DNA of 64,000 bases from an uncultured bacterium (GTDB taxonomy: Bacteria; T1Sed10-126). The notes beneath the pieces are model-generated. The model was not told where the DNA came from and searched no databases. It was given only the letters and a program-made list of their open reading frames with translations. Shown one piece after another: positions 2,661-45,213 of this stretch (its first letter is position 1; every line of letters begins with the position of its first letter). Both the position numbers and the translations under genes were made by a program. The stretch is taken from contig CAZVWJ010000012.1 in assembly GCA_964631325.1 (NCBI GenBank), positions 224 to 64,223 on the forward strand. The letters are read 5' to 3'.

Positions 2661-5564
2661 TCAGTTTTCTATTCCGGTTATAGTTTTCATGTATTTCCCA
2701 AACTCTTGGACCTTCTTAATACGGCTATTTTGAAGGTCCTTTATAAACTCTCTCCATTTCTTTGTTTGTTCCCCAGACAAATCATCATAAATAATACCCA
2801 GACATTTTAAGTACCCCGCTGATCTACTGGGTATATCATCTCTTTCCATACGGTCTTTTTGGGTAGGGCTAGCGACCTTATAAATTTTTGAAGACAACTC
2901 GTTAATAGAATCTTCATCTGGATCAATCTCACTTTTCATTTGTTCGTATATCCTACCCAAATAATATACTTTCATTTCTTGTTCAGTAGCGCTATTAATT
3001 CTATTTACGGACTTGGCAAATCTTTGTGTAAAATATTGTTTGACTTCTTCAGTCAGCTTTAGTTCATCTACCATCTCGTCAGTAACGTAATCTATAACGT
3101 CTTGACTGGCATCTAAATTTGAAGAAATTGGTATTTTAAAAATGAAATCTATTAAAAACTTGGTTCTTGGTGCTCCCTTATCTCCTTTGTAAAAATGAAA
3201 GCAAGGTATTAAGAGTCTATTGTTATTCACATCCTTTAAGATTCGCGCGGTTTTACTCAGTAGCTTTTCAAACGCTTCTAAATTAATTTGGTTTTCTAAA
3301 GCTAATATCGAAGCAAAAATGTGATCTGTCTCATCTTTCTTATATCTATCATCTTCATCTTTAAACTCGTCCGCTAAATCAAGCATCTTCGAAATCATGT
3401 TTGAGCGAACTTTAACTGCTTCATCCCCTTCGAGGTAAGAATCAAGTTCCTGGTAATTGTCAAAATACTTTATTTTTCCTGGGACTGGAGCATCTGGATC
3501 AGGCTCTAACGTATCCGCATAATCCTTAAACATTACTGGCTTAACATACTTCGCAACTGCCTTTTCCTCTTCTTGTAATATTTCAATTGCCTTGTCAAAA
3601 CGGGGAGCCGGGTGATCTACGAAGAATTCACTAATACTTTTTGAAATCGTTTCAGAAACGTCGCTGTTAGGCACACTTTCGTGATGTGAAACAAATGCTC
3701 TTAGAATTTCTTCATTAAAACTATTTTCAGCTTTTTCTGAACTTATTAATCGAGCCAAATAGACAAATACCTCTTTCGAATCAACTCGATTTACTGATAG
3801 AATCTCAAAGAGGGGATTAATAGGAAAATCTGTTAAATACTCAGGATCCTGCTGAATCAAGGTGATCAGTCGATCGATTACAACTTTATAAATTTCTGTC
3901 TTCCCTTCTTTATAATCTGAAGCAAGTTTCGCTGACGAAATAAGAATATCCTTCAAATCTTCAAATCTTTCATTCTTATAACATTCGAAAAGCTCTTTCC
4001 GTAAAACCGAAGTGTATGGTTCGATATATTTGATTTCTTCAGGATGGAAATCATTCCGGAACCCTTCTGAATCATAGATAGCTTCCTGGAATACGGATAT
4101 ATTTTCCGAATCTTTATGGGATGGATCAGCGAGATCAATAAAGGGGTCAAGATCCTCCACGTCATTAACTCGGGTTTCTCTCAGAAATGACTTCAACGTG
4201 GCTCCAAGAGATTTGTTTGTAGCATGAACAGGATCATTAAGAGTCTTGTGGAGTGGCTCATACTTTTGCTCTCGCTCGTCTACATTTAAATCAAAGTAAT
4301 CCCTCAGATCTTTTAGTAGAAATTTGTTTTTTTCCAGCCTTTGATAAAAACTCGGGAAAAATTCCTGCAGAACCAAAATTTTTGCTAAAAAATCGAGATT
4401 ACTTGTCACAACATTCCTTTTAATTTCTGGTTCTTCATCATCTTCAGATGTTTCAAGCTTTTCAGCCAATTCTCTCAAAACAACAATATTGTTAAGTATT
4501 TGCTTTATTTTTCTGGGGTTTTTAATTTTTGCCTTGTATAGGACATCTAGAACCTCGTGGGGGAGTTTCACTTGGAGAGTATCGTTCTGTTCATCGATAA
4601 ATTCTTCTGTGTTTTCCGCTTCCAATTTCGGTATGCGGAGCTGAGTTTGGAACATCTTTCTTAAAAATTCTCTACCAAATTTTTCATCAGCATTTGCCTT
4701 TTGTGATATATGAGAGATGAGAGCTTCCTCATCACAAGTAATCACAAATATGCAATCTTCATTTTCCATAAAAGTTTTGACTGAGATTAAAACTTCATAA
4801 GCAATTTCTGGCTCACATCTATCTAAATTGTCAATACCTATTATCAATTTCTCGAAATTCCCTTCCCTGTTTAAGGATTTATTTACAATTGACTGAAAAA
4901 TTTTCTCGTAAGCTCCAGACCATTCTTTTCTCGGATTTAAGGCTCTAATTTGAGGCTTGGCAACATACGAAATCAATTCCTTGATAACAGATATCCCAAT
5001 AATGGTACTTATGATTCCCAGAGATTGAGCAAGACTTCCGTACCAATATGCTATACCGGCTACGACAAAACCTACCGTATAAAGTGTTACGTAAAGTATT
5101 AATTTAGGAGGATTTTTGACTAAATTTTTCCACAAAGTACTTAAATTTGACTGAATTTCCTCAGTGACATCGTATAGTTGAGAAGTAATATCGCTTTCCC
5201 CTAATATCCCATCAGATTCCCCCAATTCATCTCCAATTAATTCATCTATTTGTAAAAGTAGCTCAGTCCGAACAGAGCCCTCGGCGTGCTTCCAAGCGTC
5301 AAAGTTAACACAAATATATTCATTATTTTCTTCTTTGAGTCTATTGAATAATAATTTGACTACTGAACTTTTACCGGACCCCCAAGGACCAAAGAGACCT
5401 ATATTGAATGGAGGATCAACTTTCTCAATTATGGTTTTAAGTGTTTTGGCATATTTTTTTCTCCCAAACTCATCCTCGCCGGGTGAGCCAATTTCTTCGT
5501 CGGGTAAAAGATAATATTCCTCATTGCCGCCAACTTCATTTTGAGAGCTACTCATCAATAACAA
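2661..5564 (-). CDS. KAP-family P-loop NTPase (PifA/Kidins220-like) with transmembrane insert
   Basis: Walker A GLFGPWGSGKSS near N-terminus; hydrophobic helices (LILYVTLYTVGFVVAGIAYWY..IISTIIGISVI) inserted in the NTPase domain as in KAP NTPases; 967 aa. Confidence 0.8.
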   Translation of the reverse strand: MLLMSSSQNEVGGNEEYYLLPDEEIGSPGEDEFGRKKYAKTLKTIIEKVDPPFNIGLFGPWGSGKSSVVKLLFNRLKEENNEYICVNFDAWKHAEGSVRTELLLQIDELIGDELGESDGILGESDITSQLYDVTEEIQSNLSTLWKNLVKNPPKLILYVTLYTVGFVVAGIAYWYGSLAQSLGIISTIIGISVIKELISYVAKPQIRALNPRKEWSGAYEKIFQSIVNKSLNREGNFEKLIIGIDNLDRCEPEIAYEVLISVKTFMENEDCIFVITCDEEALISHISQKANADEKFGREFLRKMFQTQLRIPKLEAENTEEFIDEQNDTLQVKLPHEVLDVLYKAKIKNPRKIKQILNNIVVLRELAEKLETSEDDEEPEIKRNVVTSNLDFLAKILVLQEFFPSFYQRLEKNKFLLKDLRDYFDLNVDEREQKYEPLHKTLNDPVHATNKSLGATLKSFLRETRVNDVEDLDPFIDLADPSHKDSENISVFQEAIYDSEGFRNDFHPEEIKYIEPYTSVLRKELFECYKNERFEDLKDILISSAKLASDYKEGKTEIYKVVIDRLITLIQQDPEYLTDFPINPLFEILSVNRVDSKEVFVYLARLISSEKAENSFNEEILRAFVSHHESVPNSDVSETISKSISEFFVDHPAPRFDKAIEILQEEEKAVAKYVKPVMFKDYADTLEPDPDAPVPGKIKYFDNYQELDSYLEGDEAVKVRSNMISKMLDLADEFKDEDDRYKKDETDHIFASILALENQINLEAFEKLLSKTARILKDVNNNRLLIPCFHFYKGDKGAPRTKFLIDFIFKIPISSNLDASQDVIDYVTDEMVDELKLTEEVKQYFTQRFAKSVNRINSATEQEMKVYYLGRIYEQMKSEIDPDEDSINELSSKIYKVASPTQKDRMERDDIPSRSAGYLKCLGIIYDDLSGEQTKKWREFIKDLQNSRIKKVQEFGKYMKTITGIEN

Positions 5565-8500
5565 CTTCTCAGGACGAGGTTTAGGCGCCAGAGGGGGGCG
5601 GCTTGCTCAATTGGTAGGTACCAAACGAATTTATTGATACCATCCCGGAAAAGCGGAGCCATCTCAGGCCAAATTCTTACAATCTCTTCCATTCTTTCAC
5701 CGAATCGAGAAGCTGACTCTTCTGGTTCTCCTTCAGAAATTGAGGAGGATAGTAGAGCCTCAACTATTGACTCAGCTTCACCGGTTAAATTATTGTCTTC
5801 CTTTGAAGGTAATGGCTTATCAGTTTCTTCAGAAGCCTTTTCTGCTCTTTTTTTAAGATGTTTAAATAATTTCTTTCTTAGATCTTCTTCATCTAAATAC
5901 CCTATCTGTGTGCCAAAGAATTCTAACGCCAGTCGGGAATTAATATCCTCAATCTCAAAAAGTTCATCAAAATCAAATTTTTCAATAACCTCCAGCAACT
6001 TTCCCCTTAACTCTGGATACATTGACCTATGGCCGACAATGGCATTTAACAAAGTCCACGCAATATCTTTACCTGGTTCTTCAATTACATCATTAAGAGC
6101 CTGTCTTGTATATTTTTTCATTAGATCCGACGAGACTAAAAACCCCATGTCTTCTCCAAAAGTCTCTTCGACTACATCATTTCTTGCCCGACCAAGAAAT
6201 GAATTTAAAGCATTCTCCCCAAGAGATGGGTCATTCATAAATTCAGGGTGAATCGATCTTTCATCTTCCTCTCCAACCATGAAGTTTGAAACCAATTCTT
6301 CTTCTACATCCATATCTTCTATCAGGTCAATCGGGAATTTTTCATATCTTGAAAATAAGCCCATGAATAAGAAAGTTCGCTTCTTTACTTCCCTCGGATA
6401 TGCCACATCGTTCCATAACTCAAAGTCCCGATCGAATGTAAGAAGATCAGTTTGTTCCATATTAATCCTAAAATGCTTAAAAATTTGCTCATTATTTATA
6501 CCCGAACGGAGAATAATATTCTGTAATTGAGAAGCGTGTATCCAATTCGCCAGCAAGTATTCCTCTTTGGTTAGCTGTTCGTGATATTGAAGACGGTTCA
6601 GTTCTCGATTCACCCATTTAAGCGTAATCATGAATGATTCGGTATGTAGAGAATCAGGATTCAAGAGCCCGTCTAAAATTTCCTCAGCTTTCTCCAAGGT
6701 CCAGGGATCGTCTTCTTGAAATTGCATTACCAAATTAAACAGGTGAATTAATCGAACAGCCGAAGCCCATTGATCCGATAAATTCTGCAATAAATCAACG
6801 CGATCATCCGAAGACAAGTTTTGTAATTCTTGATAGAGAGGGGCAGGAAAATGTTTTGGAAGATGTGCGAACCGATGGAATGCTTCTTCAAGACCCTCTT
6901 GATTGATTAGTTTTCGTGCTGCCTCTTCTAAAGATTCGTCTATTTCAGTAGCGTCAACTTCTTCATATCGAAGGAAATTTCTGAAAGACTCGGCTTCGGG
7001 AGGGATAAAATCTTCCCTTTTTAATGTTTGCGGCTCTGTGCTGGCCTGAGATTGTAGTTCAAAGTGGTAGAACGGAAGTGATTTCTCACGATATCTATGA
7101 ACTTGTTCCATTCGTTCTTTTAACGAATCTGCTTCTAACAACTCATCTAAGACGTCTTCAAACTCTTGCCTATCTCTATCGAACCACTCCGACCAGGTTT
7201 GTTCCAGAACATCCTCGATAACTCCTTCATCCCTCGACAAAAATCCACATTCAATACTTTCAAACGTAAATTCCTCATCTGTATCTTGATCCACAAATTT
7301 AATGCTATCGCAAAATTCATATTGGGAGTCCAATTCGTTTGGAGAAATTAAAAAAGTTTTCCGACCGGTCCTATCTTGTAACTCTACCTGTTCACTCTCT
7401 CTGTTTACTATAGTTGCGAGCGTCGGCCAAATTTCATTTGGCTTAAATTCGAATCCTGCAAACTCTATGGTTCCTTGAGGCTCTAAAGCAAGTGGATCGG
7501 CTATTCCAGCTAAATTTATATTTTTTTGAATTTTGACTGGCAAATCCCGAAAGAACCGCTGAAGTTGTGCCCGCATAGTTTTCTCTCGCGATTCATCTTC
7601 TAAATCCTCGTCTAAAAAACTAATTAAAAATTCTCGTATCGCTTCCCCCACAGAATTAATGAGAACCCCTTCGTTTAATTCTCTCGGAGCTAACATCCTA
7701 TTGTACAGCCATTGTAAATAATTTTTTCGAAATTTTGACTCCACTTGTGAATCCCCGTGAGTTATTTGAATAGCGTTGCACATAACCCTTCCTATATTTT
7801 GTCCATAAAAGACAAGATCATCCTGTTCATACTTCGTGAGTTCAAGAATTCGACGTATACCAAGCATATCAACAAACAGATTCGAAAATATCCAATTACT
7901 ATATGCTCGCTTCTCATTTTTATTTAAATTACCACTCGACCATATTTCAATTAATACAGCAGATATTTCATGAAATAGATTCATCGTATATCTTACTTCC
8001 CCCATTGAATTTTCAGCTTCAGTATCACTGGGGAATTGCAAATTGTCTTTGTCAATTTGAGTCCCACTAACGTATCGTCTTAAAACTTCAAGTTCATCTG
8101 TTCCTTCCACTGATAGCCCAAATCTATTTTCTTCAAAACTACTCTCATTAAGCCAATACAATATTTCCTCTGAATCTACGGGTAGATACCGTAAATCAGC
8201 TTCCCGCATATAAATCAAGTCACGATAGTAATGCTCTTCACTATAAAAATTATCTATCGTTGATTCAGATGATTCATCTTCTTGATACCTTTCTTCATGG
8301 CTTTGTCTTATCTTCTTTAAAACCTCTGGCATGCCGACAATTGGATTGCCCTGTATGTTCCCATGCCCACTTACATATCTATCATCAGTACAAACGACAC
8401 TCTCTTCTGAAAAATCACCGGTTAAAAGATCCACAAGTACTCTATAATTTGGTTCACGCATTTGTTCATTACTTATTTTTCCTTCCTGATCTTCGGCTAG

Positions 8501-10000
8501 TTCAAGGAACTGATACTTTTCTGGCTGATTTTCCTGAATATGATCGATCAGCGTTTCAATTTCTCCAGCCAGTGATAATCCCTGTTCGATACGCTTTAAA
8601 TTTTGTTCGATTTTCTGTTTTTCATTATTCGTAATAAAAACATTTGGGAAATACTCCAAAACCGACTCCAAAATCCCTTGTCTTTCAAGTTGTTCAATAG
8701 TGTTTCCGCCAAAGTACAAATCATCTTCAAGACTGGGAAGAACATCGTGGTCAACTTCTTCTCCATAACCACCTAAATCTTCTACCTTTGTTTCATACTC
8801 TTCTTCTGACCATTCACCAGATTCATAAATAGCTTTAAGAATTGTTTTGTTATTAACTACCAATTCTTCATATTCCCCAAGTTTGATTTCAGTCAAATTA
8901 CCATGATCATCTCTGACTGGAAGATACTCCACAATAACCCCATCTTTCTTCTTTGCTGTTTCGGCCATATGGATCCAGTCAATATCTTTAACGTCTTGAA
9001 AATCATGCCCTTCATATTCACTCTCGGAAGCATCTAAAACTTTAATTTCATCCTCTTTTATCCGCTCGGATAATCTCTCAAAATTTTCCTTTTGTATCGG
9101 TTGGTGCTTTGACTCACTTTCGGCCTGCTGTTGTAAAAATAAGATTGCAGACTTTGGCAATTTGATAGTTTCAAAGATCTGTTCGATGTGTTCAATCACT
9201 TCCAATTTCCAACCAATCAGTAAACTTGTCATATCCATCACAAATTTTTCAGTTCCTCGATCAATGAATGGATCAGTTCTGTGAGTTAAATCCCTTTGAT
9301 CGGAGGTTAATGATAGCGTTCCGTGTCGATTCATGATTGGAAAAGTCTTCCAATGGCTTTTCAATTGAGTATTTTCATCAAACACTTCCCAGAAAATATA
9401 CGGAAGGGTCGTCCCCATCGCCCCAATCCAAAAATGAAGCGGCATCTTCCCCTGATAATATCGATTCAATATTTCTCTATTTCTTTCTTTTTGCTCCTCC
9501 AGCATTTCCTTTGTTTCTTCAAGGGAGACTGCTCTTAATACATCTGGATCTTCTCCGGCGGACTCTCTCATCTTCTGAAACAGTTCCTTCATCTCATCAC
9601 TATCGTCAAGCCCCAGATTTGTACCGACCGTTACAGCACTTGCGATTAATTGAGGCGTATCAATTTCAAACTCTAAAGCTTTTTCCCAAAGTCGTTTGCT
9701 AATTACTCCCTCATCACCATCTTTTGGTAATAAATGTGCCACTCGTAGTAATAAAAAGGGATCTTCTAACTCCTGAGCTTGACCAAGCAACTCTTCACCG
9801 ATCCTGACAATTTCTTCCTCATCCCCCTTGTAAAGCAGTGATTCAATGTAAAGGTGATAATTCTGGGAGGTAGGCTTATCATCAACTAAATCTTTTGCCT
9901 CACTCTCTGCCTGATCAAAGTTACCAATTTGCAAAAGGGACTTAATTTTTACCTGCCGAAGTTGATTATCCATTTGAAGTTTATTCGTCATAGTACTCAC
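5555..10000 (-). CDS. giant hypothetical protein (1481 aa), acidic, predicted helical/TPR-like N-terminus, no catalytic motif recognised
   Basis: long uninterrupted ORF overlapping both neighbours by 10-20 nt (translational coupling); no Walker A, no nuclease/protease motif found by eye. Confidence 0.6.
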   Translation of the reverse strand: MSTMTNKLQMDNQLRQVKIKSLLQIGNFDQAESEAKDLVDDKPTSQNYHLYIESLLYKGDEEEIVRIGEELLGQAQELEDPFLLLRVAHLLPKDGDEGVISKRLWEKALEFEIDTPQLIASAVTVGTNLGLDDSDEMKELFQKMRESAGEDPDVLRAVSLEETKEMLEEQKERNREILNRYYQGKMPLHFWIGAMGTTLPYIFWEVFDENTQLKSHWKTFPIMNRHGTLSLTSDQRDLTHRTDPFIDRGTEKFVMDMTSLLIGWKLEVIEHIEQIFETIKLPKSAILFLQQQAESESKHQPIQKENFERLSERIKEDEIKVLDASESEYEGHDFQDVKDIDWIHMAETAKKKDGVIVEYLPVRDDHGNLTEIKLGEYEELVVNNKTILKAIYESGEWSEEEYETKVEDLGGYGEEVDHDVLPSLEDDLYFGGNTIEQLERQGILESVLEYFPNVFITNNEKQKIEQNLKRIEQGLSLAGEIETLIDHIQENQPEKYQFLELAEDQEGKISNEQMREPNYRVLVDLLTGDFSEESVVCTDDRYVSGHGNIQGNPIVGMPEVLKKIRQSHEERYQEDESSESTIDNFYSEEHYYRDLIYMREADLRYLPVDSEEILYWLNESSFEENRFGLSVEGTDELEVLRRYVSGTQIDKDNLQFPSDTEAENSMGEVRYTMNLFHEISAVLIEIWSSGNLNKNEKRAYSNWIFSNLFVDMLGIRRILELTKYEQDDLVFYGQNIGRVMCNAIQITHGDSQVESKFRKNYLQWLYNRMLAPRELNEGVLINSVGEAIREFLISFLDEDLEDESREKTMRAQLQRFFRDLPVKIQKNINLAGIADPLALEPQGTIEFAGFEFKPNEIWPTLATIVNRESEQVELQDRTGRKTFLISPNELDSQYEFCDSIKFVDQDTDEEFTFESIECGFLSRDEGVIEDVLEQTWSEWFDRDRQEFEDVLDELLEADSLKERMEQVHRYREKSLPFYHFELQSQASTEPQTLKREDFIPPEAESFRNFLRYEEVDATEIDESLEEAARKLINQEGLEEAFHRFAHLPKHFPAPLYQELQNLSSDDRVDLLQNLSDQWASAVRLIHLFNLVMQFQEDDPWTLEKAEEILDGLLNPDSLHTESFMITLKWVNRELNRLQYHEQLTKEEYLLANWIHASQLQNIILRSGINNEQIFKHFRINMEQTDLLTFDRDFELWNDVAYPREVKKRTFLFMGLFSRYEKFPIDLIEDMDVEEELVSNFMVGEEDERSIHPEFMNDPSLGENALNSFLGRARNDVVEETFGEDMGFLVSSDLMKKYTRQALNDVIEEPGKDIAWTLLNAIVGHRSMYPELRGKLLEVIEKFDFDELFEIEDINSRLALEFFGTQIGYLDEEDLRKKLFKHLKKRAEKASEETDKPLPSKEDNNLTGEAESIVEALLSSSISEGEPEESASRFGERMEEIVRIWPEMAPLFRDGINKFVWYLPIEQAAPLWRLNLVLRSCY

Positions 10001-12182
10001 CTAGCATTCGCAACGTCTCGCGAGGCCTCCCACTGTTAAAAGCCCCCGCCACAGCCATTCTTTTAGCGCTATCAGTCATAACCTTTTCAATCAACTTTTG
10101 TTTATGATCATAAACAAATTCCCAGTCTCCCTGCTGGGCCTTCAACTCGCATAATTCATACAAAAAATCCCCTCGCTCTGTTTCTTTATATTTGGATTCG
10201 AGATATTCTTCCAAATCCTCATACTTTTCGTCTTCATAACCTTTTCGGTGATAAGACATATTTTGAATCTGTTCAAAATAACTGAGATCTTGACATGACT
10301 GGACGGTATCTAAAGCCTTTTCATATTCTCCTTGGAGCAATAGAATTCTGGCTTTCCAATATTTCCATAATTCTTTTGAATCCCCACCAAATATTTCTTT
10401 ACTTTCTTCATGCAGCCAAATGGCATCATCTATATTCCCTCTAGATAATAAAGCAACCAATAATCCAATTACTTCATTAACCCCAGGAGAATATTTTTCA
10501 AAACGCTGAATTACTTCATTAGCGGTAAGTTGGTTAACTACATTAAAATCTCTGGCTGTCCCCCAAATAAAAGCCCCATAATGAATCGAATTTTCGGAAA
10601 GCAATTTTTCAGCGTAATTATTAGCACTTTCTGTATTGCCGGGGTCTTCCAACTCATCTAAATTTGCCTTACAGGCTAATTTCCAGACTTCTAAATCTAC
10701 TGCCTCTCTTTCATTTTCAGTTGCAATATCAATCAATTCATCAAAAGTATCCTGGGCTTCCTGAAGTCTCTCTCGAATATCTTCGTCTTTGATTAGATAA
10801 TGTCTGAAGACAGGCATGGGGGGATTTAAAGGCTGATCTGGGAGAATGACAGGAGAGAAAGCTGAATGATAATAAATTATTCCTTTAGTCCGCTGAACTT
10901 CAAAATTGTCTGGCTCCTCTTCCGCAATTTTCTCGATTTGGTCATATGCCTTTCCTAAATTTTCTTGTAATAAAAATGCTATAGCTTTTAATCGCTTGGT
11001 TTCATAATTTAAGGTGAACTCATCTTCAAATTCATCAAGGCGACTCCAAAAATCTTTGATTTCATTCATTTCCAACAAACAGGCAAGTATTAAATTACCT
11101 GCTTCTATAGTGGAGGGGTCTTCTAGTTGATTTAAAACCTTGCTAGGATTTTCTTCATGGTATAGTACTACAAATTTTTCGTATTCAGTGTTTATATCAA
11201 CCTGTAATTGATCAATTTCTTCGAAAATTTTTCTTGCTTCCGGAAAATCTTCCTCAATAGTGGCTTTTAAAACAGCTTCAATTTTTAATATTTCTGCTCT
11301 AACTTCATTATCATTTAGAAATTTTTCATTTTCTCGGAGGTTTAAAATTTGTTCATATGCACGTCGTGTCCTACCTTGTTTTAGAAGATTTTTCACCTCC
11401 TGAAGTTCTTCAAAAGTCATTTCGGTAATTCTTTCGAAAGCTTGCTCGTTAACAATATTTTTCTTTTTTAATTTTTGTTTTAAGTTTCTATCTGTATTTG
11501 GATTTTCCTCACAAATTACATTAATCCAATGATCTGCCGGTTCCAAAAAACGAGCAACTATATGAGGATGGTCCATCAATTTATCTTTTAATTCTCTAGC
11601 TGACCAAACTTCAAAATCAATTCCATGTTTTTTTAATCTTTGTATTTGGTTTTCAATTACATCATGCACTTGAGTCCGTTGGATATCACTCGCTAAAAAT
11701 AAAATAATTTTCTTAACTCGCTCAAAATCCCAATGATCTTCATTTTCTTCTAATATTCGATTCACAACATTTGTAATAAGTTTTGGTTCTACTTCTACAT
11801 GAGATTTACATTCACCTAAAATAATCTGGTCTTCTGAAGTAATTGCTTTAAGATCAACTCCAAAATCAGATTGGCCTTCTATACCATATAACTCACAAAA
11901 CTCGATATGATTCTCTTTTCTAAGAATATTTAGACAAAGTTTTTCAAATCGTTTTGGAGTCAATTGATAAAAAGGGGGGGATAAATCTAGTTTTATATTC
12001 GGGGTAATAAACTCAGCTTCATCATAAATTGGAAAATCCTCAGGATTAGATTTAGAGTTCTGAAAAACTTTACTACTTGCCTTTTTGTTATAATTTTTAT
12101 CCATTTTTTTCACCTCAGGATCACTGTTATGATCTTTTCTTTTCAATTTTTTCATTGAGTTCACTAAGCGACTCACATTCAT
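9981..12182 (-). CDS. Mrr-like PD-(D/E)xK restriction-endonuclease domain fused to C-terminal TPR/helical repeats
   Basis: N-terminal FEKLCLNILRKENHIEFCELYGIEGQSDFGVDLKAI...ILGECKSHVE matches Mrr_cat (D...E-x-K) pattern; remainder TPR-like; true start may be the internal MDKNYNKK. Confidence 0.65.
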   Translation of the reverse strand: MNVSRLVNSMKKLKRKDHNSDPEVKKMDKNYNKKASSKVFQNSKSNPEDFPIYDEAEFITPNIKLDLSPPFYQLTPKRFEKLCLNILRKENHIEFCELYGIEGQSDFGVDLKAITSEDQIILGECKSHVEVEPKLITNVVNRILEENEDHWDFERVKKIILFLASDIQRTQVHDVIENQIQRLKKHGIDFEVWSARELKDKLMDHPHIVARFLEPADHWINVICEENPNTDRNLKQKLKKKNIVNEQAFERITEMTFEELQEVKNLLKQGRTRRAYEQILNLRENEKFLNDNEVRAEILKIEAVLKATIEEDFPEARKIFEEIDQLQVDINTEYEKFVVLYHEENPSKVLNQLEDPSTIEAGNLILACLLEMNEIKDFWSRLDEFEDEFTLNYETKRLKAIAFLLQENLGKAYDQIEKIAEEEPDNFEVQRTKGIIYYHSAFSPVILPDQPLNPPMPVFRHYLIKDEDIRERLQEAQDTFDELIDIATENEREAVDLEVWKLACKANLDELEDPGNTESANNYAEKLLSENSIHYGAFIWGTARDFNVVNQLTANEVIQRFEKYSPGVNEVIGLLVALLSRGNIDDAIWLHEESKEIFGGDSKELWKYWKARILLLQGEYEKALDTVQSCQDLSYFEQIQNMSYHRKGYEDEKYEDLEEYLESKYKETERGDFLYELCELKAQQGDWEFVYDHKQKLIEKVMTDSAKRMAVAGAFNSGRPRETLRMLGEYYDE

Positions 12183-12564
12183 CAGCCAATTGTTTTAATT
12201 CTTCCCAATCTGTATCTTGAACAGTCTCTTCTGTATCACTTGGATTTGAATCCGGGGTATTATCTGGAGCGAAATTCTGTCTTAGTTCTTCCCCAAACCA
12301 ATTCTCGGTAAATAAAAAAATATTTACTTGGGGTGTATCTTTTCCATCGCTTTTTAAAAAAGGTATAGAACTCCAATCTAAACGAGCTTTCCCAACTTTA
12401 CATAACCAGAAAATTAAGCAAAAAACTAATAAATGAATAAATAAATGTGAAAACCAACGAATATTGTATCCTTCTGGATAAACAAGATCGCTATAGTAAA
12501 ACCTCACCTCATCAATAAATCGAGGTAAACCAAATTGCTTATACTTAATCGTATTGATCCTCAA
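12127..12564 (-). CDS. small membrane protein (one TM helix, acidic tail)
   Basis: 145-aa ORF with hydrophobic segment HLFIHLLVFCLIFWLC; overlaps MTase stop by 20 nt and next gene start. Confidence 0.35.
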   Translation of the reverse strand: MRINTIKYKQFGLPRFIDEVRFYYSDLVYPEGYNIRWFSHLFIHLLVFCLIFWLCKVGKARLDWSSIPFLKSDGKDTPQVNIFLFTENWFGEELRQNFAPDNTPDSNPSDTEETVQDTDWEELKQLADECESLSELNEKIEKKRS

Positions 12565-15500
12565 TTATTTGAATTTCTTCATTTGTGAGTCCATATAGCT
12601 CATAAACTATCCGATCAATTTCTTGGTCGGTTTCTTCGATTTTTTTCTCAATGTTTAATTTTTCGGAGTCCGATGTTACTTGAGTAAGACTTCCATGTAA
12701 ACTGAGCATCCTATCGGCTTTTTCGGCGATTTGATCGCGCAGTTCAACTTCAGTTGAGTTCGATTCATCGATTTGTTTGATGGGGAGTTGCTCCATGTAT
12801 TGGTAGATATAGCGAAGATATCCGCCTCGGTAAGATGAACAGATGTTTTCGTAATAAAAGGCAAGTAGTTTCGAGTTGAGTAAACCCAGTAAATAAGGAT
12901 CGTCACTGGATATTATGTAAGCCGTGTTTACACAATAATAATTGCCATCTCGATCCAGTGTGAAGTTACCCCTTTCAGCAATATCTGGAACTATTAATTT
13001 GGGCTTTTCAAATTCATCGTAATAATCGCAGGCTCGAAGTTCCCACCAGTATTCTCCTTGATCGTATCGTTCCCGAGCTCTTTCCTCATATTGACTCAGG
13101 TATCCGGTAATAGCTGGATACTGTTGCTTCAACCATTGCCATTCATCCGCGTCTTTTGGAGCATTTTCATTAGTCCAACCGTTGGGGAAGAAAATTAGAT
13201 AATGTTCTGGTGACAAGGATGCATATCGCTTGATATCGCGGCCCTTCAAAAATGGTTTAAGCCGTTCATCGCTGGCTGGGTTTTTATCAATTAATTCCTG
13301 ATACTTAGCCGAGTCAATTACAAAGGCTTTGTTCAATCCTGTTTTAATCCCGTAGTGAATTCCACCATTTACGACTTTTTTTAAAGGCTTGGACTGATCC
13401 CTTACTTTACGAAGCAAATCTTGAGTTTCTTTACCTACAAGTGTCCAACTTCCTCCCGTTAGGAATTCCTTATTCATAGGAAATGAATCTTCCCGGAAGA
13501 GAACAGATAAATCTCCGAGAATATCGTCTTGTTCATTGGCAACGTCGAGGGCGGTGAATTCACCATTAAAAGAAGTCGGAGACATCATCAGAATACAGGG
13601 GTAAGTCGTGGCGGTATCGAAAACTGTATAATCGCCGAAATTGATCAGTTTTCGAATCGGTTGGTCATCGAGCCAACTGCGAAGATTCTTTCCGTATTTG
13701 GCTCGCATCCATTTGTTGGACACAATGTAGCAGAAGGTCCCCTCCTGGTTCAATAACTTGTAACCACGTTCGATGAAATAAGTGTAGAAATCCGCGGTGC
13801 CATAATAAGTTTCATAATGATTCTTAAAATATTCTTTCTGTTCTCCCAAGTCCTCCTGTCTGACGTAGGGCGGATTAGCGATAACTACATCAAACCCGTT
13901 ATTTTCCAGGAAGACTTCGGTGAAGTAGAGTTCCCAGAGGAAGAACGGGCGACGGCGGGACTGTTTTATTTCTTCGAGTTCTTTTAGTTTTTCTTCTTCG
14001 TCGTGTTCCTCCAGGGTGGCTTCAATGAGTTCCCAGTGTAGCTCTTCAATTTCTTCGCGTAATTCTCGTTTTTCGCTCTTGCGGACGGCATCCGCGAATT
14101 CTTTTTGAAGTTGATCCAATTCTTCTGCCTTTTTACGGGCCTCACTGTGGCGCTGGAAGAGGTCAGGGGTTCCATGCTGGTTTTGTTGTTCACTCTCTAA
14201 ATTTCCTATTTCTTTTTTTATCTTTTCCAATTCATTGTCCAAACGTTTCTGTTCGGCTGATGGAAGATTACCGGACTGGTGGCGGTCTATATATTGTTTT
14301 TCAAGGGACCGTTGTTTCTCTTTTAATTCTCGGCGGCGGGCTTCGGTATCGGCTTGCCGGTCACGGATAAGTTCGGAGTCAAACAGTTCAATCCCCTCGT
14401 ATTCCTCGACCAGCGAGTCGCCCTGCATAATTCGGTACTCGAGGTTGGGTAGGGGTTTAATCTCTTCATAGTCTTCCTCATCAACGACCAGGGAGAGCCA
14501 GAGGCGGAGCTTGGCGATATCAACGGAACTGGGATCAATATCAACGCCGTAGAGATTATGTAAAATAGCGTGGCGCTTGAGCTCATACTGGCTGCGATCT
14601 TCACCGGAATCAAGATAGGGAGTGAGCAGGCGGCGCAGTTTGACGATCTCCTGCATCAGGCCGACCGGGAAGGCGCCGGAACCGATTGCCGGGTCGCAGA
14701 CTTTAATCTCGGCAAGTAGCGCGTCAATTTTGTTGACCCGCTCACGGATAGAATCGGGAATTTTTTGTTGGCGTTCGGCAAGATCACCTTCCGCAACGGC
14801 CGCTTCGTGTTGAAGCAGAAGATCACCGTGTTCAACGACTAATCTTATGTCCGCTTCAGGAATGTCCCCCCCATCTGTATCTTCCCCCACCGGGGGGGAA
14901 GAGCTTTCACCCTCACCCCGGCCCTCTTCCATCGAGGGAGAGGGAGTTTGGTCCCCCTCATCCGCCCTGCGGGCACCTTCTCCCACCGGGGGAGAAGAAT
15001 CACCCCCATCTTGCTCTTCCCCCATCGAGGGGGAAGAGCTTTCACCCCCACCTGTGTCCTCCCCCGTCGAGGGGGAGGAGATGTTTTTGCTATCTGGGGA
15101 GAGATTATTTTTATTGTTCAAATGTGTGGAGAGGTAATTGACCAGGCTTTCCTGGCACATGTAGTGGACTATTTCGCGGGGGGTGTAGAAAGCGCCCTTT
15201 GATTTGCGGTCCTCGACGTCAAGCATGCGCTCGTAGACCTTGCCCAGCATCTCGGGATCAACGGCGACTTCTTTTTCCAGCGGTTCATCCTCGCGGATGG
15301 TGAAGTTGTAGCGGTCGAAGGTGTCAAAAATCTCGGCGAAGAGTTCGTCGGGGAGGGTGAGTTCAGTCTCGTCCCAGGCGTAGTTATTTATCGGTTCAAA
15401 TAAACCGCCGTTTAAAAAGGGAATGCGGCACTCCAGTTTTGAATCCATGGCGCCCCGGCCGCGGTCGACGGCAAGCGAGTTGTAGAACAGGTGTTCGAGC

Positions 15501-16402
15501 ACGTCGTTGTAAAAATTGTCGTAAGCACAGTATTCGCCCGCAAAGAGCCGGCGGAGAAAATCTTTCGGACCGGTGCCCCACTCGTGGAAAGAGCCGGAAG
15601 CATCGCGTTCGACGCCCAGCCAGCCTTTTTTCTGAATAAAATAGAGGAAGACAATCTGGCCGAGGAGCTTCTTGGCAAAACTGGTCGGGGTAATATCCTT
15701 CTTGTCAAACTCCGCCCGGATTTTATCGTCCGCCGTTAATACCTCTTCGGTGGCCTCTTTGGCTTCCAGGAACAGCTCCCGGTATTGCTCGAAGAACTCG
15801 TCGGAAACCGGTTCAACGCTAAAGGCTTCTTCAAGTTCAGCCAGGCTGGGTTTGCTCTCCTGATCAAGAACCCGGGCGAGCTGTTTCTGGGCCGTATGAT
15901 TTGGTTCGTTGGCCCCGACAAGATAGGAAAAGCGCTTGGCCGGCGATAGCTCCCGCCGGGGCCGGGTCTTCCCGGCCTCAGTTTCCTGGAGGCTGTAGTC
16001 AACCTTGACCAGGGAAAACCGCCAGTCGGGGTGGCCCTCGGTGTGAAAGGCAACCAGCGCCCCGTCCTTCTGATAGCCCCGGCTGTCCCGCAGATACCAG
16101 CCAACAAAATTACGCTGGGCGGTGCGGGCGCGGCGCAGGTTGGAAACCTGGTTGAGATGGACAACCAGCACATGGATGTATTTACCGTTTGGTTCGTCGT
16201 ATTTTCCGAGGCGGCGGTAGGACTTGACGTATTTTTTGTAGGCTTCGGGGATGTTGTAGCCGGACATACTTTTCTGGGCTTCCTCGGAATCATCAAAATC
16301 GCGCTGGAGGAGGTTATTGATAAAGTTATGGTAGCGGGCCTCGTCAAACGGTTGGTCGAAGGTGTTTTTAATAACGTTTTTCGTGGCTTCCTGAACAGTC
16401 AT
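12545..16402 (-). CDS. gamma-class N6-adenine DNA methyltransferase, PglX / Type IIG (Eco57I-MmeI)-like, with TaqI-C-like target recognition region and internal acidic tandem-repeat linker
   Basis: motif I VCDPAIGSGAFP; motif IV DVVIANPPYV; C-terminal GIHYGIKTGLNKAFVI typical of TaqI_C-type TRD; 1285 aa; repeat SPS/PVGE-D/E-GG-ESS inserted upstream of the MTase core. Confidence 0.8.
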   Translation of the reverse strand: MTVQEATKNVIKNTFDQPFDEARYHNFINNLLQRDFDDSEEAQKSMSGYNIPEAYKKYVKSYRRLGKYDEPNGKYIHVLVVHLNQVSNLRRARTAQRNFVGWYLRDSRGYQKDGALVAFHTEGHPDWRFSLVKVDYSLQETEAGKTRPRRELSPAKRFSYLVGANEPNHTAQKQLARVLDQESKPSLAELEEAFSVEPVSDEFFEQYRELFLEAKEATEEVLTADDKIRAEFDKKDITPTSFAKKLLGQIVFLYFIQKKGWLGVERDASGSFHEWGTGPKDFLRRLFAGEYCAYDNFYNDVLEHLFYNSLAVDRGRGAMDSKLECRIPFLNGGLFEPINNYAWDETELTLPDELFAEIFDTFDRYNFTIREDEPLEKEVAVDPEMLGKVYERMLDVEDRKSKGAFYTPREIVHYMCQESLVNYLSTHLNNKNNLSPDSKNISSPSTGEDTGGGESSSPSMGEEQDGGDSSPPVGEGARRADEGDQTPSPSMEEGRGEGESSSPPVGEDTDGGDIPEADIRLVVEHGDLLLQHEAAVAEGDLAERQQKIPDSIRERVNKIDALLAEIKVCDPAIGSGAFPVGLMQEIVKLRRLLTPYLDSGEDRSQYELKRHAILHNLYGVDIDPSSVDIAKLRLWLSLVVDEEDYEEIKPLPNLEYRIMQGDSLVEEYEGIELFDSELIRDRQADTEARRRELKEKQRSLEKQYIDRHQSGNLPSAEQKRLDNELEKIKKEIGNLESEQQNQHGTPDLFQRHSEARKKAEELDQLQKEFADAVRKSEKRELREEIEELHWELIEATLEEHDEEEKLKELEEIKQSRRRPFFLWELYFTEVFLENNGFDVVIANPPYVRQEDLGEQKEYFKNHYETYYGTADFYTYFIERGYKLLNQEGTFCYIVSNKWMRAKYGKNLRSWLDDQPIRKLINFGDYTVFDTATTYPCILMMSPTSFNGEFTALDVANEQDDILGDLSVLFREDSFPMNKEFLTGGSWTLVGKETQDLLRKVRDQSKPLKKVVNGGIHYGIKTGLNKAFVIDSAKYQELIDKNPASDERLKPFLKGRDIKRYASLSPEHYLIFFPNGWTNENAPKDADEWQWLKQQYPAITGYLSQYEERARERYDQGEYWWELRACDYYDEFEKPKLIVPDIAERGNFTLDRDGNYYCVNTAYIISSDDPYLLGLLNSKLLAFYYENICSSYRGGYLRYIYQYMEQLPIKQIDESNSTEVELRDQIAEKADRMLSLHGSLTQVTSDSEKLNIEKKIEETDQEIDRIVYELYGLTNEEIQIIEDQYD
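14860..15085. repeat. intragenic imperfect tandem repeat (encodes SPSxGE(D/E)xxGG(E/D)SS units) with C7 and G7 homopolymer tracts
   Basis: repeated tcttcccccatcgagggggaagagctttcaccc-like units visible in the sequence; tgtccccccc and caccggggggg tracts. Confidence 0.7.
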
Positions 16403-16454
16403 GTGAAACTCCTCAAAACCATTATTGGACAGGATTTACAGGATAAACAAGATC

Positions 16455-16540
16455 TTAATTTAACGCAAAGGCGCAGAGGCGCAAAGAAGTATCTCCGTGG
16501 GGACGGAGGTTGATTATTGATTAACTTTTTTAGCTCGCGG
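16455..16540. repeat. dispersed intergenic repeat cluster (aacgcaaaggcgcagaggcgcaaag + ggggacggaggttgattattgattaacttttttagctcgc)
   Basis: same motifs recur at ~21980-22155, 28329-28354, 28707-28750 and partially at 25558-25600. Confidence 0.75.
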
Positions 16541-16658
16541 GTGGGCGCTGATTAGAGATTAACTCCTCTGCACTATTGCGCGATTATACAAATTTTGCGT
16601 CCGAGCCTGCTGAAGTTTTTTTCGGAGACAATCATTCATTAGATTCTCAAACATGTAA

Positions 16659-16900
16659 TCAGTCAAGCTGAAGTTCCCAGTGCCCCTCTTTTCTGCCGCC
16701 AATACGTTCTAATACATCCTTTTCTCTCAATTTCCTGATATTTTTCTGCACAGCTCGCTGACTTATTCCTATATCTTCAGCAAGTTCCGAAATCGTTGTT
16801 TCTTTATTTTGTCCAATCAATCCCAGAATTTTCTTCTCACTTTTCCCGAATCTTTCCCCGTTAAGTACCCTGGCATGTATTCCATCAAGTATCCTGTATC
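16659..16900 (-). pseudogene. 3'-terminal winged-helix fragment of an AlbA_2-family gene (no start codon, upstream in-frame stop)
   Basis: translates to ..GKSEKKILGLIGQNKETTISELAEDIGISQRAVQKNIRKLREKDVLERIGGRKEGHWELQLD*, aligning with the C-terminus of the 505-aa AlbA_2 protein at 25693-27210; stop and 3' flank (~85 bp) are identical to that gene. Confidence 0.55.
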
Positions 16901-16930
16901 AATGTTTCAGTCAATATCCAGCTCACCTTT

Positions 16931-16978
16931 TACTGTGACATTACTGTGACATTACTATGACATTTACTATGACATTAT
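16931..16978. repeat. 11-bp tandem repeat x4 (tactgtgacat / tactatgacat)
   Basis: directly visible immediately 3' of the AlbA_2 gene stop (16987). Confidence 0.7.
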
Positions 16979-16986
16979 GTTCAAAA

Positions 16987-18402
16987 TTAGTTTGGAAATT
17001 GATAAAACGCAGTTGGGTCAGTTTCCGATTCTGCCTTTCTTTCCAAAACACCTTTTTCCTGTAAACTTGTTAGTTTTCTATTCACAGTTCGCTTTACTTT
17101 CCCTATCAACTCAACGGCTTCCTTAGTGGTTATTTTTTGATTTTTTTGGATGTAATTAACAATTTTTTGCTCATCCTCATCAAGATCAACCTCATTTATC
17201 CCGTCATTTATCCCGTCATCCTTCTTTGTCGGTTTCAGTGGAATAATGGTCTTAAAAATGTCATCCTCAATTAATTTCGGGGTGGCCCCGGAAGTATAGA
17301 TTCCACAGTATTTAAAGGTATTGCGGACGCCGGAACCAAGCTCATCAGCACGTCCAATCTCCTTGAAAAAACTGGCAATCACCGGGTTCTTGGGATAGGG
17401 CGAGAAATTATCCGGGTTGATTTCCCCCACGTTGCGGGTGCGGTTGGCGTTCTCCGTCAGAACTCTGTCTTCCTCAATGATCAACTTAGCTGGATAGGGA
17501 TTCGTGTATTCCCGGTGAATCAACAGGTTCCCGATGACTTCGTGAAAAATAAGATCACGGACGCTTATTCGTTGATCGCCTTCGTTGTAGTATTTATCGG
17601 GAAGATGCTTTTTCACGAAGGCCATGAGCCGATCGTAACTTTCAATTAAATTCGTCCGCACGTCATCTCTGTCGTCGTAGCGATCCTTATTTTCAACCCG
17701 CTTGATCGCATCCGTCCGGTGATGTGGACACACGTCCCGAATAACCTCGTCCTTTCCCAGCAACAGAACGGCTGCCAACGTATACCCGGATTTGTTTGAC
17801 TGGCGGTCCTCCCGGTAAAGACCGGCTGAACGAAGAAGCTCCCGGTCCTCCAATTCCAGCCACGGATGGTTCTTACGTTCACTACGGGCAAGCTTCCGTA
17901 TTCGCTCAAACAGATCGTTTTTGAAATCGCCCATTTCTACAAACGGGTAAATCTCGTTCTCCGTGTAGGTCGACTGCTTGCGCCTGTAAAGCTTACTTAC
18001 CTGCTCAGGCTGGTCCGTTATATCCAGATCCCCGTCCTCATTACGGTCATAGATTTCCCCACATGTCCGGTGGACCTGTGAGCTTTCCGGCACGAAAGTG
18101 TGGAGGACGTGCTTTCCCTCGTATTCAATGGTCTCCGGGGACAAATAAAATGGCGGATTGAGTTTTTGTGAATTGTTGGCATTGTTCACGATGCTGTTAA
18201 TGACATCCTGAACACATTGTTCCAAAACGCCCACTACTTCCTTGTCGTCATTGATTCCCAGGAACAGGTGACCTCCGTTGCGGTTAAGGAAGGCACAAAT
18301 CGTTTCAAAGGCGTTCTCATTGAGTTTCGAGCGGGATTCCTTGAACTCAACCTCAATTCCCTCGCCCGCCTGGAGATATTGCTCGAGTTCTTCCGGTTCC
18401 AT
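16987..18402 (-). CDS. AlbA_2 (Schlafen-like divergent AAA/putative DNA-binding) domain protein with HATPase_c_4-like and C-terminal wHTH regions
   Basis: N-terminal VEFKESRSKLNENAFETICAFLNRNGGHLFLGINDDKEVVGV matches AlbA_2 pattern; C-terminal HTH; abuts helicase gene (stop 18403 / start 18402). Confidence 0.7.
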   Translation of the reverse strand: MEPEELEQYLQAGEGIEVEFKESRSKLNENAFETICAFLNRNGGHLFLGINDDKEVVGVLEQCVQDVINSIVNNANNSQKLNPPFYLSPETIEYEGKHVLHTFVPESSQVHRTCGEIYDRNEDGDLDITDQPEQVSKLYRRKQSTYTENEIYPFVEMGDFKNDLFERIRKLARSERKNHPWLELEDRELLRSAGLYREDRQSNKSGYTLAAVLLLGKDEVIRDVCPHHRTDAIKRVENKDRYDDRDDVRTNLIESYDRLMAFVKKHLPDKYYNEGDQRISVRDLIFHEVIGNLLIHREYTNPYPAKLIIEEDRVLTENANRTRNVGEINPDNFSPYPKNPVIASFFKEIGRADELGSGVRNTFKYCGIYTSGATPKLIEDDIFKTIIPLKPTKKDDGINDGINEVDLDEDEQKIVNYIQKNQKITTKEAVELIGKVKRTVNRKLTSLQEKGVLERKAESETDPTAFYQFPN

Positions 18403-42810: not shown

Positions 42811-42879
42811 TTAAGTCCTCCGAATCAGCCAGATAAATTCAACAGCCAAGTGCAACATAAAACATCAACGACTTCCACT

Positions 42880-42990
42880 ATAGCTCCCCTCCCCTGATGG
42901 GAGGTAATTAAGGGAAGGGGGATGATAACGTGAACAGTGTTCACCCCCACCTAACCTCCCTCATCAGGGTGAGGGATGTTGGAAGGGAAA
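42880..42990. repeat. GC-rich hairpin repeat in nuoM-nuoL intergenic gap (related copy at 60375-60535)
   Basis: cccctgatgggaggtaattaagggaagggggatg vs cccttgatgggggaggactaaggtgggggtgaaa; local hairpins ccctca..tgaggg. Confidence 0.5.
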
Positions 42991-43056
42991 TTGTTGCATT
43001 TGTTAATTGAATCCAAGGCTCATAATTTAACGCAGACACACATATTATTTACCACT

Positions 43057-44895: not shown

Positions 44896-44899
44896 AATA

Positions 44900-45196: not shown

Positions 45197-45213
45197 TATT
45201 GCTTACTCCTCCC

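Follow-up and report, generated by a model that had tools for sequence, protein, structure and literature searches.

Gene organization at the locus

The window analyzed here, by which we mean the whole stretch of 64,000 nucleotides of contig CAZVWJ010000012.1 from an uncultured bacterium, contains three tightly packed genes on the minus strand, listed in the order of transcription:

9981..12182, minus strand: Mrr-TPR gene, ORF of 733 aa (Mrr_cat, E 0.0098, plus TPR matches)
5555..9991, minus strand: giant core gene, 1478 aa, likely ATG start at 9991
2661..5555, minus strand: gene for a KAP-family P-loop NTPase, 964 aa (PF07693, E 3.6e-35)

The reading frame of the middle gene can be extended to a GTG at position 10000 (ORF 5555..10000, minus strand, 1481 aa). 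The ATG at 9991 is the likely start, as it is preceded by GGTGAG and yields a protein of 1478 aa, the same as in the public gene call P0001. With a length of 4.4 kb in DNA of 38% G+C and dozens of end-to-end homologues, this ORF is far beyond what chance would produce and is genuine. In agreement with a preliminary description of this DNA, which reported a very large acidic protein without a Walker motif, the product of 1478 to 1481 aa is strongly acidic (173 kDa, pI 4.52, 307 D+E vs 158 K+R), and a sequence motif check of the 1478-aa protein found no Walker A motif. The same description held that start and stop overlap both neighbors, and this is correct in detail: the TAA stop of the upstream gene at 9983-9981 leads to an overlap of 11 nt with the giant ATG, and at the TGATG junction at 5555 the TGA stop of the giant gene and the ATG of the KAP gene have the A in common. 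The G+C content of all three genes is similarly low (0.34-0.38), and scans for promoters and terminators scored no better than shuffled sequence.

The proposed defense-island setting is also confirmed, with genes for an HKD-SNF2 helicase, a Schlafen/AlbA_2 protein and a type IIG restriction-modification system in addition to the Mrr-TPR and KAP genes. The giant protein is plausibly the core of a system that is translationally coupled to both neighbors. An analogy to DruE or BrxC, which had been suggested for this core, does not hold: neither an ATPase or helicase motif nor a Walker A motif is present, and PADLOC gives no match.

A large family of proteins of about 2,100 aa

Word-index searches returned just P0001-P0004, that is 3-4 homologues, and a third search of this type was empty. 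Furthermore, PADLOC and NCBIfam contain no match for the giant core, there is no PADLOC model for it, and PDB sequence searches gave no match. These results favored a true orphan without recognizable domains, as the preliminary description had supposed, but this impression was false and arose from the small number of homologues found by the word-index searches. It was corrected by an exhaustive HMMER search, which identified 1,721 cluster representatives at E<=1e-3, 712 of which reach E<=1e-30; the family comprises at least 1,700 clusters at 50% identity. Using BLASTP, at least 25 metagenomic or plasmid relatives align with aa 6-1476 in a single HSP with E-values down to 1e-132. This is a family match over most of the length, which had been named beforehand as the finding that would speak against an orphan, in a family that has been described computationally only. 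Together with a PF24407 match above threshold, these data refute the orphan interpretation, to which we attach a negligible probability.

Most of the HMMER relatives are about 2,100 aa long and carry the core region at about residues 820-1740. The usual order in a single chain is a variable effector, a TPR region of about 600 aa, an HTH (PF24407), two PIN-like units, a helical linker, a small domain with the Pfam name 'permuted GreAB-C' and a conserved C-terminal module of about 570 aa. The N-terminal effectors vary between Mrr-REase, TIR, HNH, PNP, caspase and alpha/beta-hydrolase domains, and a Metallophos protein is encoded separately. Among 24 members, PF24407 was matched in all 24, PF20698 (PIN) in 10 and PF24388 (permuted GreAB-C) in seven, and the PF20698 and PF24388 matches of the relatives fall at aligned positions. 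Members are found on cyanobacterial megaplasmids, in Firmicutes and Acidobacteria and in many metagenomes, and are located in defense-island or mobile contexts. The protein of the window is among the most divergent members, with about 22-25% identity. The locus search gave one genome locus and no metagenome locus with query A2 and 27 loci with query A7.

The family is related to the TPR–GreA/B-C–PIN (TGP) conflict proteins (Kaur, Iyer, Burroughs and Aravind 2021, PMC8195603), from which it differs by its large size and rearranged domains. It has been described computationally so far, and its members are predicted to be anti-phage sensors. In the literature searched we found no description of a 'double PIN' or 'permuted GreAB-C' form.

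The protein is encoded by two genes

The upstream protein starts with an Mrr-like PD-(D/E)xK domain (DFGVDL ... GECK) and continues with TPR-like repeats over about 480 aa; its homologous part comprises aa 58-731. Colinearity with residues 1-675 of the fused members of about 2,100 aa extends over residues 58-730 (E 7e-81), and residues 258-724 align with the TIR-fused protein P0003 (E 4e-24). Because the 733-aa protein corresponds colinearly to about the first 675 aa of the fused proteins, we conclude from these alignments that the giant protein is the larger of the two parts of a protein of roughly 2,100 residues, which is split into two genes in the window. The effector and most of the TPR array are supplied in trans by the upstream gene. 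The split junction with its 11-nt overlap is kept in the closest relative, locus L001, at about 50% amino-acid identity, and the upstream protein itself is 50% identical to its L001 counterpart. Further split members are found at L009, L010, L017, L028 and L014/L015. Programmed +1 frameshifting at the overlap was considered and rejected, as there is no slippery or hungry-codon context and what is conserved is an ATG preceded by a ribosome-binding site of its own.

Domain architecture of the giant protein

Alignments with the relatives, Pfam searches and AF2 models (pLDDT 84 and 87.5), which contain two beta/alpha units and a small alpha+beta domain, resulted in the following map:

9557..9991, minus strand: TPR-like helical N-terminus, aa 1-145 (weak TPR_19/TPR_14 matches)
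9320..9523, minus strand: HTH_upstream_double_PIN (PF24407), aa 157-224 (32.9 bits vs cut-off 27)
8792..9256, minus strand: PIN-like unit 1, aa 246-400 (D253, T255, E270 and E355 conserved)
8267..8734, minus strand: PIN-like unit 2, aa 420-575 (invariant D536-D537-R538 after a beta strand)
7487..8266, minus strand: conserved helical linker, aa 576-835 (invariant R596, E609, E665, W684 and W761)
7256..7474, minus strand: small alpha+beta domain, aa 840-912 (aligned with the Permuted_GreAB-C, PF24388, of relatives)
5555..7255, minus strand: C-terminal module, aa 913-1478 plus stop (conserved across 24 members, mostly helical)

The TPR-like N-terminus noticed in the preliminary description is retained: the Pfam match is weak (TPR_19, E 0.61; TPR_14 reaches E 5e-4 in the 48%-identical P0002), and aa 1-145 align with the end of the TPR array in the fused members and in this way continue the array of the upstream gene. 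The preliminary remark that no nuclease signature is visible by eye is correct, but it does not extend to profile searches. Nor is the protein domain-less: PF24407 exceeds its gathering score, and the AF2 model has three helices at aa 157-208 in this region.

At PIN-like unit 1, which has the order beta-alpha-alpha-beta-alpha-alpha-beta-alpha-beta in the AF2 model, the giant protein gives a faint PF20698 match (E 1.6), and the relatives P0156 and P0012 match this family at the same position. PIN-like unit 2 lacks an acidic residue after the first strand, and at position 531 the D that is conserved across the family is replaced by S. The PF20698 match of P0004 (48 bits, two stretches) spans the region aligned to this unit. 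When the two units were compared by hhalign, they matched only weakly, though in register (E 0.005, probability 7%). The putative active-site residues D253, T255, E270, D/E355 and D536-D537-R538 are all present in the giant protein and occur in 23-24 of the 24 sequences.

The helical linker is shared with P0004 of S. fredii (hhalign probability 98.3%). The PF24388 matches of the relatives map onto aa 840-896, with P0156 reaching 37.9 bits vs a cut-off of 27 (its residues 1481-1531), and a Pfam search of the window protein gave no match to PF24388. In the AF2 model aa 842-911 have the order beta-beta-alpha-beta-beta-beta-beta (pLDDT 87.5) and are followed by helices at aa 913-995. The C-terminal module of about 570 aa has no Pfam or PDB match; W1150, H1152, D1195, S1264 and G1267 and the motifs WAHA, HPRR and SFLGGDR are conserved in it.

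We could not confirm the PIN and GreA/B-C folds of the giant core, which are named by Pfam in relatives, by independent methods (Foldseek, HMMER, hhalign). For the PIN-like units, the AF2 topology and the conserved acidic residues would agree with such a fold. Foldseek against PDB and BFVD found nothing at E<0.27 for either AF2 model, and searches of PDB sequences with an HMM profile for each unit recovered no PIN or Gre protein and only weak TPR/ankyrin-like noise. The hhalign probability was below 1% both for the GreAB-C-like domain against the tandem E. coli GreA CTD (1GRJ) and for the PIN-like region against a provisional Shigella VapC sequence.

The downstream KAP NTPase occupies an exchangeable position

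The start of the KAP gene at the TGATG agrees with the public gene call of 964 aa. The protein, a membrane-associated NTPase, contains a Walker A motif (GPWGSGKS, aa 56-63) as well as a pair of hydrophobic helices near aa 150-200 and matches QatA, PifA and PDC-S20 in PADLOC and NCBIfam; no match was found for its C-terminal part of about 600 aa. At the identical TGATG junction the third gene encodes a KAP protein here and a TIR protein in L001, and because of this exchange we regard the position as an exchangeable operon slot. Furthermore, in L017 an nSTAND1 NTPase gene starts 4 nt after the core gene. A 145-aa ORF of the window is unrelated to the cyclase-like ORF of L001. No KAP homologue was found among 37 other related loci, and it is possible that the KAP protein is independent of the system.

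Proposed function and alternative explanations

Sequence comparison establishes family membership, the split, effector swapping among the relatives and the exchangeable third gene. We estimate at about 70% the probability that the 1478-aa protein serves as the core subunit in a split representative of a large family of giant conflict proteins, probably directed against phages, and acts by the following mechanism. By analogy with the TGP model and with Bab/Agp, an experimentally tested TGP example (bioRxiv 10.1101/2024.11.07.622273), the TPR/helical solenoid together with the GreAB-C-like domain may sense an infection cue, possibly a hijacked RNA polymerase. The PIN-like units with their conserved D253/E270/E355 and D536/D537 would then cleave RNA as a first response, and the toxic modules, namely the partner-chain REase and possibly also the KAP NTPase, would subsequently be released and lead to abortive infection.

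The two-gene arrangement could also be explained by decay, with a frameshift having broken a gene for about 2,100 aa into a non-functional pseudogene. The split points indeed differ among lineages, as would be expected of accidental breaks, and the two reading frames are offset by +1 at the junction. However, neither of the two ORFs, with 733 and 1478 codons, is interrupted, and L001 keeps the same junction (ATG inside TAT-G) despite 48-50% identity, including a ribosome-binding site that reads GGTGAG or GGAGAA in the window and L001, which makes a pseudogene very improbable. It is less easy to dismiss that the functional unit consists of the 733-aa and 1478-aa proteins alone and that the KAP gene is a single-gene defense of its own, similar to PifA or PDC-S20. 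The 37 related loci have no KAP homologue alongside, most of the fused members are solitary, with no co-oriented and tightly coupled neighbor, and PADLOC and NCBIfam tie the KAP domain to PifA, PDC-S20 and QatA. The shared base of stop and start codon, the other defense gene at the same junction in L001, the similarly coupled nSTAND1 NTPase of L017 and the common low G+C content of the three genes argue against this separation. We consider an independent KAP protein less likely than not.

A related question is whether the core itself is catalytic. It might be a sensor or scaffold in which degenerate PIN-like units bind a ligand or nucleic acid and the killing is left to the partner REase, the KAP protein or both. 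This would fit with the loss of the first acidic residue and of D531 in unit 2, with the failure of Foldseek, HMMER and hhalign to recover a PIN protein and with the behavior of the TGP protein in Bab/Agp, which acted merely as a sensor activating a separate executioner. On the other hand, the conservation of D253, T255, E270, D/E355 and D536-D537-R538 in almost every sequence is what one would expect of a catalytic or metal-binding site rather than of a scaffold, and we consider a non-catalytic core somewhat unlikely. More speculative, and in our opinion clearly unlikely, is the idea that the PIN and GreAB-C labels are wrong for this large-form family, as neither was recovered by the fold and profile searches. 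The core, including the C-terminal module, would then be a new infection sensor in a three-chain machine, with a detachable effector-TPR arm and a third subunit that can be exchanged (KAP NTPase, STAND NTPase or TIR) at the conserved TGATG junction that gates or executes cell death in an NTP-dependent manner.

With the core placed as a subunit of a split conflict system, an apparent orphan becomes a handle on a very large and experimentally uncharacterized family, in whose 2,100-aa proteins the toxic head (REase, TIR, HNH, PNP, caspase) is exchanged while the sensor body stays constant. In the naturally split three-gene form, effector arm, sensor core and accessory NTPase are polypeptides of their own, and this form is a convenient entry to genetics and biochemistry, asking which part senses, which part kills and whether the NTPase gates the response. 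In addition, this case illustrates that word-index homology searches can give a populous family the look of an orphan.

Comparison with known systems

The likeness to the KAP proteins PifA, QatA and PDC-S20 concerns the downstream neighbor only and consists of the KAP P-loop domain with inserted hydrophobic helices. For the Qat system, the QatA score of this neighbor is 108 bits vs a cut-off of 600, and genes for QatB, QatC and QatD were not found in positions 1-21.6 kb of the window.

The closest counterparts are the fused PF24407 proteins, for example those of Desulfofundulus thermobenzoicus (WP_152944953.1) and Leptolyngbya boryana (WP_190711077.1, 'caspase family protein'), whose annotation does not go beyond TPR, HTH or hypothetical protein. 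Their sequences are colinear with the 733-aa protein joined to the 1478-aa protein, and they have the same Pfam domains, conserved residues and defense-island or mobile context. They differ in being a single polypeptide, whereas the window has two translationally coupled genes and, in addition, a coupled KAP NTPase.

The TGP proteins (PMC8195603) resemble the family in the variable N-terminal effector (REase, HNH, TIR, PNPase, peptidase) on a constant, fast-evolving TPR core, in a PIN type of the same Pfam family PF20698, in a GreAB-C-type domain according to Pfam naming and in being mostly standalone genes. Their order is TPR, GreAB-C and a single C-terminal PIN, whereas here TPR, HTH, PIN, PIN, linker, permuted GreAB-C and C-terminal module follow each other. 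The constant region is about twice as long as in the TGP archetype, which lacks the extra HTH and the 570-aa C-terminal module. The tables of PMC8195603 contain just one TPR+PIN+PIN protein.

Bab/Agp of E. coli ECOR25 likewise combines a TGP-type sensor with a separately encoded executioner in a defense island, and mutations of its GreA/B-C domain abolish signaling (bioRxiv 10.1101/2024.11.07.622273). Agp activity independent of Bab, that is of the PIN type, was not seen in this system. In Bab/Agp the signal passes to a membrane protein with a Bell domain by way of a shared BASS11 amyloid motif, whereas the core described here is partnered by an REase-TPR chain and a KAP NTPase.

The gene and its surroundings

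The preliminary description had reported a very large acidic protein of 1481 aa at 5555-10000 that has no Walker motif and overlaps both neighbours, and all of this is confirmed: the ORF lies on the minus strand and comprises 1481 codons from a GTG, and the protein has no Walker A motif. In the start region GGTGAG precedes an ATG at 9991, and initiation at this ATG yields 1478 aa in exact agreement with the public gene call P0001. The protein has a mass of 173 kDa and a pI of 4.52 (D+E 307 vs K+R 158). The stop codon of the upstream ORF (9983-9981) lies 11 nt inside the giant gene, while downstream a single base is shared: in the TGATG junction the A of the TGA stop is also the A of the ATG of the KAP NTPase gene, and this ATG reproduces the public gene call of 964 aa. 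From 2661 to 21648 every gene is located on the minus strand and is of a defence type:

Defence-type genes between 2661 and 21648
2661-5555, minus: KAP NTPase, 964 aa
5555-9991, minus: core protein, 1478 aa
9981-12182, minus: REase-TPR protein, 733 aa
12545-16402, minus: type IIG restriction-modification (R-M) protein
16987-18402, minus: Schlafen AlbA_2 / HATPase_c_4 / winged-HTH protein
18403-21648, minus: HKD(PLD)-SNF2 helicase (PADLOC C3a139, E 7e-58)

Membership in a large protein family

The giant protein had been regarded as a domain-less orphan, and neither attribute holds. A match to PF24407 ("HTH_upstream_double_PIN") at aa 157-224 reaches 32.9 bits, above the Pfam gathering score of 27, and the segment directly C-terminal to it faintly matches PF20698, the "PIN domain associated with the TPR-GreAB-C-PIN system" (E 1.6); PADLOC and NCBIfam gave no match to the protein. 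A word-index protein search returned the protein itself, P0002 (48% identical), the TIR-fused P0003 (22%) and P0004, annotated as an "esterase/lipase family protein" of Sinorhizobium, and a further search of this kind returned no relatives. An exhaustive HMMER search with a profile of aa 146-1101 recovered 1,721 cluster representatives with E<=1e-3, of which 712 reach E<=1e-30, mostly proteins of about 2,100 aa in which the matched core spans approximately residues 820-1740. Metagenomic loci (n=27) were fetched before the BLASTP comparison, in which residues 6-1476 were aligned in single HSPs to at least 25 proteins (best E 1e-132), a clear family match over most of the length. Full-length relatives, labelled "hypothetical" or "caspase family protein", were also found by tblastn on closed cyanobacterial megaplasmids of Nostoc, Leptolyngbya, Gloeocapsopsis and Allocoleopsis. 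Family-wide conservation extends into the C-terminal 380-570 aa (W1150, H1152, D1195, S1264, G1267).

Among 24 aligned members, PF24407 is matched in all, PF20698 in 10 (best E 3e-8) and PF24388 ("Permuted_GreAB-C") in seven (best E 5e-7). In P0156 and P0012 it is the first unit that matches PF20698, whereas P0004 has two matched stretches located mainly in the second unit; the PF24388 matches map onto aa 840-896 of the window protein. The N-terminal heads vary and comprise Mrr-like REase as the commonest type, TIR, HNH, PNP/nucleosidase, caspase and alpha/beta-hydrolase, and in one locus (L010) a calcineurin-like phosphoesterase is encoded separately upstream. PADLOC matches within the family are confined to the heads (ThsB-like TIR, PN-superfamily effector), and the constant body was never recognised. 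Conflict systems are characterised by this very pattern, in which the toxic head is exchanged and the body stays constant. A role of the giant protein in defence is likely, and its earlier reading as the mechanistic core of a defence operon is plausible.

The TIR-fused P0003 (1718 aa; loci L002-L004) ends just before the C-terminal module at the same point on three independent contigs. As each of these contigs stops 22 nt past the stop codon, truncation of the gene by a repeat or IS insertion is suggested. On Leptolyngbya boryana plasmid p1 (L038, 1175-11317) a caspase-fused member of 2213 aa directly follows a bacterial ubiquitin-like defence cluster (multiubiquitin, ThiF, DUF6527) and adjoins an IS110 transposase.

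A family protein split into two genes

The upstream 733-aa protein consists of an Mrr-like PD-(D/E)xK head (motifs DFGVDL...GECK; Mrr_cat E 0.0098) and a TPR body. Its residues 58-730 are colinear with residues 1-675 of the fused members of about 2,100 aa, for example P0156 of Desulfofundulus (E 7e-81), and residues 258-724 align to the TPR part of P0003 (E 4e-24). Therefore, the 733-aa and 1478-aa proteins together correspond to one family protein, and it is close to certain that the latter is the core subunit in a split protein of the large-form, TGP-like type (TGP, TPR–GreA/B-C–PIN).

The split is due neither to a sequencing error nor to a frameshift of recent origin: the closest relative (L001) keeps the same two genes, at 50% and 48% identity respectively, and the same 11-nt overlap, and its ATG is likewise set in a TAT-G context. 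Other lineages are split at different positions:

Split members in other lineages
L017: PNP+TPR protein, 869 aa; core, 1370 aa
L028: caspase+TPR protein, 708 aa; second protein, 1699 aa
L014 and L015: 1356 aa and 745 aa
L009 and L010: also split

Predicted structure and candidate active sites

An AF2 model of aa 146-600 from a 14-sequence alignment (pLDDT 84.3, pTM 0.79) consists of a three-helix bundle and two beta/alpha units, both with a predicted strand-helix order compatible with PIN. In unit 1, D253-x-T255 follows the first strand, and conservation of E270 and D/E355 reaches 23-24 of the 24 sequences. The first strand of unit 2 is not followed by an acidic residue; the invariant D536-D537-R538 comes after a strand. 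In the family motif G-D-V-x-W-x-D-D-R, 22 of 24 sequences carry Asp at position 531 (about 8399-8401); the window protein has Ser there and its closest relative has Cys, and the second PIN-like site may accordingly be altered in this subclade. In a second model (aa 796-1000, pLDDT 87.5), aa 842-911 form a small domain of beta-beta-alpha-beta-beta-beta-beta order with helices behind it.

Foldseek searches of the models against PDB and BFVD gave nothing below E 0.27, the unit profiles found no PIN or Gre protein among PDB sequences, and hhalign was negative against an unverified VapC sequence and assigned a probability of 0.4% to the GreAB-C-like region versus tandem E. coli GreA CTD (1GRJ sequence); PIN-like units 1 and 2 match each other weakly, in register. 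As these comparisons confirmed neither fold, the PIN and GreAB-C labels rest on Pfam's models of these families and on homology to the members that match them. Compared with PDB sequences, the family profile of the "HTH" region (aa 157-224, 9320-9523; YxxGxxPLHxx...PLxxIYH) shows a weak similarity to ankyrin repeats (1N0R, E 3.8e-4), and the HTH label may deserve a second look. In a possible mechanism, the core would sense RNAP, the PIN-like units would cut RNA and the KAP NTPase might contribute to the system.

An exchangeable third gene

The three genes at 2661-12182 have a low G+C content (0.34-0.38 vs 0.45-0.53 further along). Gene order is conserved in the L001 locus, where a type IIG R-M gene, a small variable ORF and the REase-TPR and core genes are followed by a third gene, which begins at the identical TGT TAT TGATG junction. 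In L001 this gene encodes a TIR protein of about 155 aa. In the window it encodes the 964-aa KAP NTPase, whose Walker A is intact and which has the pair of inserted hydrophobic helices usual in KAP NTPases; the 37 other related loci contain no KAP homologue. L008 and L034 also have TIR genes downstream of, or facing, family members. In L017 (3102-10671) an nSTAND1 NTPase gene begins 4 nt downstream of the core gene, and this arrangement of PNP-nucleosidase+TPR, core and nSTAND1 parallels the KAP coupling. Most fused members stand alone.

The type IIG R-M gene contains a G+C step (14-16 kb, 0.53; 12-14 kb, 0.39). The C-terminal 435 aa of its product share 67% identity with a partial IIG gene upstream of the L001 operon (74-1390), which exceeds the 48-50% of the operon proteins; judged from these identities, the R-M gene is part of the conserved island and may be mosaic. 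The slot between R-M and REase-TPR (12127-12564, minus) is occupied by an ORF of 145 aa that includes a hydrophobic stretch and has no homologue within the window; the same slot in L001 (1387-2112) holds an unrelated, class III nucleotidyl cyclase-like ORF of 241 aa (PF00211, E 1e-3). The Schlafen-type gene abuts the HKD-SNF2 gene with zero intergenic bases, and the pair may form a separate two-gene defence module. Two small ORFs 3' of the KAP gene (1114-2018, minus; 174 and 120 aa) had no Pfam, PADLOC or NCBIfam match and no homologue in related loci. The AT skew of +0.34 on the plus strand at 39878-48039 lies over minus-strand complex I genes (three Proton_antipo_M, NADHdh, 49-kDa subunit) and reflects the usual compositional bias of membrane-protein genes.

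Comparison with TGP proteins and Bab/Agp

TPR–GreA/B-C–PIN proteins with variable N-terminal effectors have been described by Kaur, Iyer, Burroughs and Aravind (2021; PMC8195603), whose tables contain a single TPR+PIN+PIN protein. The sole tested TGP system is Bab/Agp of E. coli ECOR25, in which Agp acts as the sensor of T5 infection and, via an amyloid motif, triggers Bab, a Bell-domain protein; mutation of the Agp GreA/B-C abolished signalling, and Bab-independent Agp activity was not found (bioRxiv 10.1101/2024.11.07.622273). Our literature search found no publication on the large-form PF24407 family. The window protein resembles these proteins in overall logic, but it differs from the TGP archetype in domain order, in having two PIN-like units and in two additions, an HTH and a C-terminal module of 570 aa, and it is a member of the large-form PF24407 family outside this archetype. 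The kind itself is known computationally, and what is new here is the two-gene split together with an exchangeable, translationally coupled third gene.
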